Of a stretch of 64,000 nucleotides of DNA, positions 2,327 through 11,050 are shown in pieces (positions within the stretch are counted from its first letter, which is position 1; each line of letters begins with the position of its first letter). The notes under the pieces were generated by a model, which saw only the letters and a program-made list of their open reading frames with translations, searched no databases and was not told the origin of the DNA. Origin of the DNA: Escherichia coli (GTDB lineage: Bacteria; Pseudomonadota; Gammaproteobacteria; Enterobacterales; Enterobacteriaceae); assembly GCF_016903815.1 (NCBI RefSeq), contig NZ_CP069973.1, one strand, 5' to 3'. Position numbers and translations under genes: made by a program.

Positions 2327-3109
2327 TTAACCACCATAAACATCAAAATCGAAGTACTTTTTCGCTAATTTCTCGTAAGTACCGTCAGCGCGCATTTCGG
2401 CAAAGGCTTTGTTCAGTGCCTCGCGCAGTTCGTTATCTTCTTTACGCAGGCCCATGCCGGTCCCTACGCCAAACAGTTTTTCATCTTTAACAGACGGACC
2501 ACCGAATTTGTAATCTTTACCGACGGGTTGTTTGAGGAAACCTTCGCTGGCTGCGACCTCATCCTGGAACGCGGCATCAATACGTCCGGCAGTCAGGTCA
2601 GAATAAATATTGTCCTGCCCCTGATAAGAAACGATTTCAATGCCTTTTGGTGCCCAGTGTTCGTTACCGAACGTCTCCTGGGTGGTGCCCTGCAATACGC
2701 CTACCCGTTTGCCTTTCAGCGATTCGACTGTCGGCTGAATGTCGGAATTTTTCGCCACCACCAGACGAGAATCGGCTGCGTATAGTTTGTCGGTGAATGC
2801 TATTTCTTGCTGACGTTTTTCCGTAATGGAAAGCGATGACATGATGGCGTCAATCTTCTTCGCTTTTAAGGACGGGATTAACGCATCCAGTGGGTTTTCG
2901 ACAAACGTACATTGCGTATTGATGCGTTTGCACAACTCCTTTGCCAGATCGATATCGAAGCCAACCAGTTCACCTTGTGAATTTTTTGATTCAAATGGCG
3001 CATAGGTCGGATCGGTACCGATGCGGATGTTTTGCGGAATCGCAGCAAACGCCACAGTTGCGCTGGAGAAGGCCAGAACCAGAGAGAGCGATAGCACCAG
3101 TTTTTTCAT
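2327..3109 (-). CDS. hisJ: Histidine-binding periplasmic protein
   Basis: 260-aa ORF with N-terminal signal peptide; paralogous to the adjacent argT ORF over its full length. Confidence 0.93.
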
Positions 3110-3329
3110 AATGTCCTCAACTGACAGTCTTTTTATAGGGAATATTTACAGGTTTGTTACACTTATCGTGCCATAAAATTGACCATCAAGGCAAAATATC
3201 CCGCCCCGTTAGACGTATTATTTTTCATTAAAAATGCTTAAGTATGCATTTCAATGCACCACGATAGTGCAACAAACCTGCCGTGCACCATGATGATCAT
3301 TCCATCAGGTACAGCTTCCCTGCGACGTA

Positions 3330-4112
3330 TCAGTCACCGTAGACATTAAAGTCAAAATACTTTTTCGCCATCTTGTCGTAGGTGCCGTCCTGACGCAGCT
3401 CGCCAAGCGCCTTATTAAACGCCGCCGTCAGTTCCGCATCATCTTTACGTAGCCCTACACCGGTGCCGTCACCGAAGTATTTTTTGTCTTTCACTGATGA
3501 GCCAGCAAAGGCGAAGTCTTTACCAGCAGGTTGCTTGAGGAATCCTTCGCTGGCAGCAACTTCATCTTGTAACGCAGCATCCAGACGTCCTGCAGCCAGA
3601 TCGGAATAGACCAAATCCTGGTTGGCATAGGCCACCACATCCACACCTTTGCTACGCCAGGTCTCGTTAGCGTAAGCTTCCTGGGTTGATCCCTGCAGCA
3701 CACCAACATGTTTACCTTTCAGTGAATCCAGCGTTGGCTGAATCGGCGAACCTTTGGCGGCAATCAAACGAGAATCTGCGGCGTACAGCTTGTCGGAGAA
3801 AGCAATCTCCTGCTGACGTTTATCGGTAATGGAAAGCGACGAAATAATGGCGTCGATTTTTTTCGCTTTCAGTGAGGGGATCAGCGCGTCAAAGTCACTG
3901 GCAACCCAGGTACATTTCACCTGCATCCGTTTGCACATCTCGTTACCGAGATCGATATCAAAGCCAACAAAGTCACCTTTGGCATCTTTCGATGAGAACG
4001 GCGCATAGGTGGTATCAGTTCCGATACGTACCGTCTCCGGTAGCGCCGCATAGCTGGAAGCCGCTGCGGAGAGACCGACTAACAAAGACAGAGCGAGAAT
4101 CGACTTCTTCAT
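3330..4112 (-). CDS. argT: Lysine/arginine/ornithine-binding periplasmic protein
   Basis: 260-aa signal-peptide ORF, paralogue of hisJ, upstream of hisJQMP. Confidence 0.93.
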
Positions 4113-4179
4113 ACATAACCCTCAAGTGAAAATGGCTTTTTTATGTTGTGTATTGTGTTGTGTGTTTGCAGGCTCTTTC

Positions 4180-4196
4180 ATGCAGGTCTTATGCCA
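4180..4196 (-). promoter_or_regulatory. Sigma-54 type promoter (-24/-12) upstream of argT
   Basis: Minus-strand sequence TGGCATAAGACCTGCAT fits TGGCAC-N5-TTGCA with correct GG/GC spacing, about 70 nt upstream of the argT start; argT is known to be nitrogen regulated. Confidence 0.6.
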
Positions 4197-4377
4197 TCTT
4201 TACGACAGCAGTAACATTCAACGTTAAACATGTTAATAAGACGTTGCATTATTGTCCTGAAGTTGAAGATAGCAGGTATGGCGGTTGAATCGCAGCGTTT
4301 CGATTCATCGAAAGGAACAAAATGTCGAGGATTTGATCGCGGTTGCAAAATTGCCCTGAAACAGGGCAACAGCGGAG

Positions 4378-4947
4378 TTATGCGCCCTGCCAGCGGGCAA
4401 AGAGATCTTCAGGAAGCGTTATGGCGAATTGATCGAGTACACGGTTAACCGTCTGATTTATCACATCATCAAGGGATTGCGGGCGATGATAAAACGCCGG
4501 AACGGGAGGCATAATCACCGCACCGATTTCTGCTGCCTGAGTCATTAAACGCAGATGGCCTAAGTGCAATGGTGTTTCACGTACGCAGAGCACCAACGGG
4601 CGACGCTCTTTCAGCACCACATCTGCCGCACGGGTCAGTAAGCCATCAGTATAGCTATGGACAATGCCGGACAGGGTTTTGATTGAACAGGGTAAAATCA
4701 CCATCCCCAGTGTCTGGAAAGAACCGGAAGAAATGCTGGCAGCAATATCGCGCGCATCGTGCGTCACATCGGCTGATGCCTGCACTTCGCGCAGGGAAAA
4801 ATCCGTTTCGAGGGATAAGGTCTGGCGCGCGGCCTGGCTCATCACCAAATGCGTTTCAACATCTGCGACATCGCGCAGAACCTGTAATAAGCGCACGCCA
4901 TAAATCGCGCCGCTGGCACCGCTGATGCCTACAATGAGTCGTTTCAT
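4378..4947 (-). CDS. ubiX: Flavin prenyltransferase UbiX
   Basis: 189-aa ORF starting MKRLIVGISGASGAIYG, directly downstream of purF. Confidence 0.92.
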   Translation of the reverse strand: MKRLIVGISGASGAIYGVRLLQVLRDVADVETHLVMSQAARQTLSLETDFSLREVQASADVTHDARDIAASISSGSFQTLGMVILPCSIKTLSGIVHSYTDGLLTRAADVVLKERRPLVLCVRETPLHLGHLRLMTQAAEIGAVIMPPVPAFYHRPQSLDDVINQTVNRVLDQFAITLPEDLFARWQGA

Positions 4948-10390: not shown

Positions 10391-11050
10391 TTATTTTGCG
10401 GCGCGTGCCGCAGCGCGTTTGTGGCGAATAAATTCGAAAACACCTGGCAATATTGAAACAAAAATAATGCCAACAATCATCAGTTTAAGGTTGCTCTGAA
10501 TGAAGGGGAGCGTTCCGAAGAAATAGCCTGCGTAGGTAAAAAGCAGTACCCACAACAGTGCGCCGATCACGTTATAAGCGGCGAAATGACGGTACGACAT
10601 GTGGCCCATTCCCGCAACAAACGGGGCGAACGTTCTGACGATCGGCACAAAACGGGCGAGAATAATCGTTTTGCCGCCATGTTTCTCATAAAACTGATGA
10701 GTCTTATCAAGATAACTGCGACGAAAGATTTTCGAATCCGGATTACTGAACAGTTTGTCACCAAATAACCGTCCAATGGTGTAGTTCACCGCGTCACCCA
10801 CAATCGCGGCGATCAGCATCAGCACCACCATCATATGGACGTTGAGATCGTTGGTTTCCAGTGATGCCAACGCACCGGCAACAAACAGCAATGAATCACC
10901 CGGTAAAAACGGCGTTACCACCAAACCGGTTTCACAGAACAAAATTAAGAACAAAATGGCATAAACCCAGACGCCATACTCCGCGACCAGTTCTGCCAGA
11001 TGCACGTCAATGTGCAGGATAAAATCGATGAGGAAATAAATCAGGTCCAT
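10391..11050 (-). CDS. dedA: DedA-family inner membrane protein
   Basis: 219-aa multi-TM ORF in the conserved position between accD and truA. Confidence 0.88.

Follow-up and report, generated by a model that had tools for sequence, protein, structure and literature searches.

The 17-mer TGGCATAAGACCTGCAT at positions 4180-4196 of the window (the whole 64,000-nt stretch of Escherichia coli DNA analysed here) can be identified with high confidence as argTp, the sigma-54 (RpoN)-dependent promoter of argT, activated by NtrC through the mechanism proposed below. This assignment is made because the motif is conserved and because published binding and expression experiments bear on the same element; every feature of a sigma-54 promoter that can be tested on sequence was found, and the experimental features are reported in the literature. 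The motif lies on the minus strand, which is the argT strand (its plus-strand reading is atgcaggtcttatgcca), and runs from 4196 to 4180 as a TGGCAT -24 element, an AAGAC spacer and a CTGCAT -12 element, a combination with one exact match in the 64-kb window. The GG (4195-4194) and GC (4183-4182) dinucleotides are exactly 10 nt apart in the canonical TGGCAC-N5-TTGCW register, and only two departures from this consensus were observed: the -24 hexamer has T in place of C, and the base before TGC is C in place of T. The original prediction of a TGGCAT-N5-CTGCAT element with canonical GG/GC spacing was correct in coordinates and sequence and left the minus strand unstated; the distance to the argT start, predicted at about 70 nt, was measured as 67 nt from the end of the motif to the ATG (4112). 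Publications on the argT promoter go back to the 1980s, genome-wide sigma-54 maps have included it since 2013-2015, and the element is this previously described argTp, so that the finding is already known, correct but ordinary. It confirms that a genuine sigma-54 promoter can be recognised in raw sequence read without tools, and adds nothing new on argT itself.

The region of the window from 3300 to 4400 matches complete E. coli chromosomes at 100% identity, and the RefSeq annotation of a 100% identical genome gives the gene order folC-dedD-cvpA-purF-ubiX-argT-hisJ-hisQ-hisM-hisP, all on the minus strand of the window. The argT coding sequence (3330..4112, minus) encodes a lysine/arginine/ornithine ABC transporter substrate-binding protein of 260 aa, annotated by RefSeq as ArgT, and ubiX ends at 4378, leaving a ubiX-argT spacer of 265 nt. 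Just after ubiX, an intrinsic terminator (4345..4370, minus) consists of a 9-bp stem with arms GUUGCCCUG and CAGGGCAAU followed by UUUUG, with a fold energy of -17.7 kcal/mol (z = -2.7); its arms are conserved, with compensatory changes in Buttiauxella. This terminator is the upstream boundary of the argT control region and insulates it against read-through. The sigma-54 motif is thus intergenic, co-oriented with argT, downstream of the ubiX terminator and at a plausible leader distance from the gene.

Occupancy of this motif by sigma-54 has been demonstrated experimentally. In E. coli K-12, sigma-54 ChIP-seq site OS22 has the same motif upstream of argT and likewise on the minus strand, ATGGCATAAGACCTGCA, with a peak 12-fold above threshold (Bonocora et al. 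2015, PMC4591121); it corresponds to 4197..4181 of the window. Table 1 of the same study lists argT with a “Distance 58” from the predicted start to the gene, and gives the EcoCyc status of the argT promoter, as of 2015, as “predicted” and not “confirmed” (PMC4591121). In Salmonella, the identical 18-mer was bound by sigma-54 in ChIP-chip (Samuels et al. 2013, PMC3844500), and argT expression was 3.5-fold higher in the wild type than in an rpoN mutant in the presence of DctD250, a promiscuous, constitutively active enhancer-binding protein; the same paper treats argT as one of four sigma-54 operons established by experiment, with reference to Ames & Nikaido 1985 (PMC3844500). The 17/18-nt cores of K-12 argTp and Salmonella Typhimurium argTr (ATGGCATAAGACCTGCA and TGGCATAAGACCTGCATG, respectively) are identical to the window without any difference, and the downstream gene, its orientation and the predicted 58-nt leader are also as in the window. 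Genomic SELEX with the RpoN holoenzyme gave a peak in the argT/ubiX spacer of 61% for the holoenzyme alone and 55% with NtrC (Shimada et al. 2021, PMC8743547).

With regard to nitrogen control, NtrC has been found at the locus by ChIP-seq in nitrogen-starved cells, where the signal at argT was weak (5.4-fold) and was added by eye, not by the peak caller (Brown et al. 2014, PMC4066584), and argT was counted among the NtrC-activated genes from expression analysis (PMC4066584). The gene has also been described as transcribed from an NtrC-activated sigma-54 promoter under nitrogen limitation and as not regulated by ArgR (PMC6640053). Comparison with published argT promoters, which had been proposed as a check, returned an identical sigma-54 binding motif in both E. 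coli K-12 and Salmonella, and the predicted nitrogen-regulated sigma-54 promoter of argT is supported by these identical sites together with the RefSeq identification of ArgT (PMC4591121, PMC3844500, PMC6640053). In metabolic engineering, argTp is already in use as a strong nitrogen-responsive part.

Conservation of the promoter was examined in one genome per species, scanned for an ArgT-specific coding pattern, which gave 30 loci and 29 extracted argT upstream regions from Escherichia, Citrobacter, Salmonella, Buttiauxella, Cedecea, “Klebsiella” sp. BIGb0407 and an Enterobacteriaceae MAG. In all 29 argT orthologues, covering six genus-level groups, the best sense-strand sigma-54 match fell 55-74 nt upstream of the ATG and TGGCAY-N5-(C/A)TGCA was kept. 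The GG and GC dinucleotides were invariant and the spacer between the two elements varied, as in TGGCATAAGACCTGCA, TGGCATGAAAACTGCA, TGGCACGAAAACTGCA and TGGCATAAGAACTGCA. This was further quantified in an alignment of 18 ubiX-argT spacers, with column identities of 100% for TGGCA and 99% for CTGCA and 78% for the remaining spacer. Within E. coli, 50 nt comprising the promoter and the start of the leader were found as an exact match in 5015 of 5426 complete genomes, and the core was kept in all six divergent spacer alleles examined.

In the proposed mechanism, sigma-54 RNA polymerase would form a stable closed complex on the GG and GC dinucleotides whatever the conditions. Under nitrogen limitation, phosphorylated NtrC, an AAA+ enhancer-binding protein, would contact this closed complex by DNA looping, and its ATP hydrolysis would open the promoter, with transcription predicted to start near 4170 and to yield a 58-nt leader. 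For as long as it is not activated, the bound holoenzyme would sit just downstream of a weak sigma-70 start at ~4202 and dampen that start, and at the level of the transcript the small RNA GcvB would limit ArgT synthesis when amino acids are plentiful by acting on a C/A-rich target in the first ~26 nt of the leader.

Several positions from which NtrC may activate argTp in E. coli were considered. In glnAp2, the archetype of NtrC-activated sigma-54 promoters, two strong NtrC sites lie some 100-140 bp upstream. argTp resembles glnAp2 in its -24 GG/-12 GC architecture, in its activation by NtrC under nitrogen limitation and in its neighbouring sigma-70 promoter, on which the nitrogen-regulation machinery has a negative effect, but in Escherichia it differs in that its upstream spacer carries no recognisable NtrC site. 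Specifically, a scan with the NtrC consensus TGCACC-N4-TGGTGCA at a cut-off of at most 4/13 mismatches gave no NtrC-like site in the ubiX-argT spacers of the Escherichia and Salmonella sequences. The missing canonical upstream site affects the model of activation, and not the identity of the promoter or its dependence on NtrC.

NtrC sites were found on the other side of the gene. Two tandem sites in the argT-hisJ spacer (3255..3300, minus), TGCACTATCGTGGTGCA (3271..3255) and the weaker ATGATCATCATGGTGCA (3300..3284), form a candidate enhancer; the former is the sole match to the NtrC consensus with 0 mismatches in the 64 kb and lies ~0.9 kb away from argTp on its downstream side. The pair is conserved in Escherichia, Salmonella, Citrobacter and Buttiauxella; it directly adjoins the -35 hexamer (TTGAAA) of the hisJ sigma-70 promoter known from the literature (TTGAAA-16-TTTAAT), and it coincides with a strong 23.7-fold NtrC ChIP-seq peak, “hisJQMP” (PMC4066584). 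Further downstream, a sigma-54-like motif, ATGGCACGATAAGTGTA (3158-3174, minus), is located 48 nt upstream of the hisJ ATG and scores 12.6 bits with the matrix described below. At the orthologous position, a canonical TGGCACGATAACTGCA is found in Citrobacter and TGGCATGAAACATGCA in Buttiauxella, and all Escherichia sequences have GTGTA at -12. The text and sites of the K-12 sigma-54 ChIP-seq paper (PMC4591121) do not include hisJ. The Escherichia hisJ motif looks like a decaying or weakened sigma-54 promoter.

The chances are about even that argTp, while being a genuine sigma-54 promoter, receives its activation from weak or non-canonical NtrC sites in its own upstream spacer, or from NtrC in solution, and not from the hisJ-proximal sites. 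The terminator palindrome TGCCCTGTTTCAGGGCA (4366-4350), with the same TGCnC-N7-GnGCA frame, is one candidate for an upstream site, and the forward primer of a published 196-bp plasmid fragment (4366..4171) starts exactly at this palindrome; among 12 sigma-54 promoters, this fragment, which contains none of the downstream sites, had the highest GFP signal. NtrC-like sites also occur at the equivalent position just after ubiX in other genera, a good one in Buttiauxella and weaker ones in the Cedecea group, in a segment that is absent from Escherichia in the alignment. However, the palindrome departs from the NtrC consensus at 5/13 positions, and the changes in its Buttiauxella counterpart are compensatory, as in a terminator stem, so that the palindrome is more likely just the ubiX terminator than an NtrC site. 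The plasmid result does not decide on the location of the enhancer because the fragment also carries the sigma-70 promoter, and genomic SELEX with NtrC alone showed no enrichment of the argT spacer, its table listing neither this spacer nor that of hisJ.

A more speculative arrangement, to which we give a low probability, is that in Escherichia, and probably in Salmonella, argTp has lost its own upstream NtrC enhancer and would be activated by the sites at 3255-3300, ~0.9 kb downstream, which would originally have served the hisJ sigma-54 promoter; the weak NtrC ChIP signal at argT, which is centred on the -24/-12 element, would then reflect a cross-link through looping and not direct binding to the DNA. 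The link of these sites to argTp is one that we infer. If true, it would represent a natural chromosomal bacterial enhancer acting from downstream across a whole gene, and one that has outlived its original promoter. The notion that upstream NtrC sites occur only where the downstream ones are missing was also considered and set aside, since Buttiauxella has both and the pattern is therefore not clean.

With either position of NtrC, argTp is still read as an NtrC-activated sigma-54 promoter, and a second role of the bound holoenzyme is apparent from published work. In Schaefer et al. (2015), the sigma-54 motif of argT occupies positions +6 to +22 relative to a sigma-70 start (PMC4551910 Table S3); this start maps to ~4202 in the window, 5 nt before the motif. 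Their RNA-seq comparison of cells with and without sigma-54 gave an argT level in the presence of rpoN that was 23% of the vector control, expression being higher when rpoN was absent, and sigma-54 was demonstrated to lower sigma-70 transcription from the argT promoter in vitro (PMC4551910). From the published offset, the overlapping sigma-70 promoter would comprise TTAACA (4236-4231), a 17-nt spacer and TACTGC (4213-4208), a putative promoter at 4208..4236 on the minus strand with its start at ~4202; a consensus sigma-70 scan of 3000-4500 returned no promoter at the threshold of the scanner. The last -10 position is C in the window and T in K-12 (TACTGC vs TACTGT), and if the hexamer assignment is right this C at 4208 would weaken the sigma-70 promoter.

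Outside nitrogen limitation, argT expression is rpoN-independent and is in fact repressed by rpoN. The original prediction had named rpoN-independent expression as a point against the promoter; the higher expression of argT without rpoN (Schaefer et al. 2015) bears on that point, and is read as an added repressive role that leaves the promoter standing. In this respect argT belongs to the class II “repressive” sites of Schaefer et al. (2015), along with mdfA and topA, in which the motif lies just downstream of a sigma-70 start with C at -12 and expression, that of argT included, rises without rpoN. It differs from a purely repressive site in that it also has rpoN-dependent activation.

It is improbable, but not to the point of being negligible, that the site is mainly one of repressive docking, at which the holoenzyme on 4180-4197 chiefly blocks the upstream sigma-70 promoter and contributes little productive sigma-54 transcription of argT. 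The class II placement at +6 to +22, the 23% expression and the in vitro reduction of sigma-70 transcription (PMC4551910) are in line with such a role, as are the proposal of a “repressive” class of RpoN promoters, with the argT spacer bound by the RpoN holoenzyme alone (PMC8743547), and the outcome of the upstream NtrC scan. On the other hand, given an active enhancer-binding protein, argT is more highly expressed in wild-type Salmonella than in the rpoN mutant (PMC3844500), it is among the NtrC-activated genes, with NtrC at the locus in nitrogen-starved cells (PMC4066584), and conservation across genera is seen for the -24/-12 core but, outside Escherichia, not for the putative sigma-70 -10 hexamer. 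The repressive and activating roles of the argT sigma-54 site are compatible, and for this reason the docking model differs from that of an activated argTp in emphasis only.

The strength of the motif as sequence was assessed with a PSSM derived from the other 41 intergenic motifs under sigma-54 ChIP-seq peaks (Bonocora et al. 2015, PMC4591121), with which both strands of the window were scanned. The argT site scored 14.7 bits, ranking third in the window and 14th-lowest against the 41 training sites, and thus inside the range of bound sites (8.8-21.5 bits, median 16.1). Matches scoring at least as high as argT are expected ~0.59 times per shuffled 64 kb; the degenerate consensus TGGCAYNNNNNYTGCW is likewise expected 0.59 times per shuffled window, with at least one match in 45 of 100 shuffles, and the exact pattern 0.03 times, a test that is circular. 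The two higher scorers were CTGGCATAACCAATGCT (46381-46397, minus; 15.8 bits) and TTGGCATTATTTTTGTT (10457-10473, minus; 15.0 bits), sense-oriented inside ORFs of 799 aa and 219 aa, respectively, and neither sequence occurs in the text of the K-12 sigma-54 ChIP-seq paper (PMC4591121). A good sigma-54 match is no evidence by itself: the argT motif is well formed but, taken as sequence, falls within chance because ~0.6 equal matches are expected per 64 kb, and it becomes significant because of its placement, its conservation and the published binding data. A functionless chance match to the consensus, which these expected numbers and the two better-scoring intragenic sites would allow, is effectively refuted already and has next to no probability, since three independent studies saw binding at the site, in vivo and in vitro, and the site keeps its position in all 29 orthologues while the surrounding spacer averages 78% identity.

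The transcript from argTp carries a further layer of control. The sigma-54 start was placed at ~4170, 12 nt downstream of the -12 C, from the position of the -12 element, in agreement with the published distance of 58 nt to argT; this predicts a leader of 58 nt (4113..4170, minus) with a Shine-Dalgarno sequence TGAGGG at 4124-4119. A C/A-rich element, TGCAAACACACAACACAATACACAAC (4145..4170, minus), begins at the predicted +1 and is complementary to the R1 seed of GcvB. Using E. coli gcvB, confirmed as Rfam RF00022, leader positions 4170-4145 were predicted to pair with GcvB nt 66-92 in a duplex of -57.4 kcal/mol, compared with -32.9 +/- 4.0 kcal/mol for shuffled leaders, a difference of ~6 sd. 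The C/A-rich block is conserved across genera in the 18-sequence alignment, and argT is listed as an R1-dependent GcvB target that was verified in Salmonella and is conserved in E. coli (PMC9299463). The leader thus resembles those of other GcvB-regulated ABC transporters (dppA, oppA, gltI and livJ/K), which together with argT have a C/A-rich element complementary to the R1 seed in the 5' UTR; in argT this element starts at the predicted +1. An Rfam scan of the argT leader gave no known RNA family. Control by GcvB is post-transcriptional, acting on the transcript and forming no part of the promoter.

The spacer also contains an invariant block, CTGCTATCTTCA (4264..4275, minus), ~100 nt upstream of the sigma-54 start, with 100% column identity in the 18 aligned spacers from six genus-level groups, compared with a spacer mean of 78%. 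In the Cedecea group this block forms a palindrome, TGCTATC-N9-GATAGCA. By-eye comparison of the block and its adjacent A/T-rich region with the consensus sequences for IHF, ArgR, Lrp, Nac/LysR and MetR gave no convincing fit. In the same group (loci L013, L023 and L026), terminator stem arms TTGCCCTG and CAGGGCAA are retained just downstream of the ubiX stop and enclose a 14-16-nt loop with GCACCA-like NtrC half-sites, with no T-run after the stem; this stem may be a different element from the E. coli terminator.

The spacer of the window is a minority allele: only 223 of 5425 genomes share it at 99% identity or more, and its identity to the K-12 type is 96.2%. All differences lie upstream of the promoter core: a tight cluster spans 4302-4314, and the two single changes are C4208, within the putative sigma-70 -10 hexamer, and A4201, just past that hexamer and shortly before the -24 element. 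On the minus strand, the cluster reads TTCCTTTCGATGA compared with TTTCTGCCATTCA in K-12 and extends an inverted repeat, TGAATCG-N8-CGATTCA. A larger change was seen in E. coli B27, a house-fly isolate (NZ_AP027424.1; locus L006, ~2170-2570), in which ubiX and the entire spacer down to the -12 element are missing: homology to the window restarts at ...CATGAAAGAG and the TGGCAT-N5-CTG part of argTp is absent, which looks like a naturally occurring deletion of the promoter in this single genome. Elsewhere in the 64-kb window, a tRNA gene at 42760-42831 on the plus strand was the sole match at the Rfam gathering threshold.
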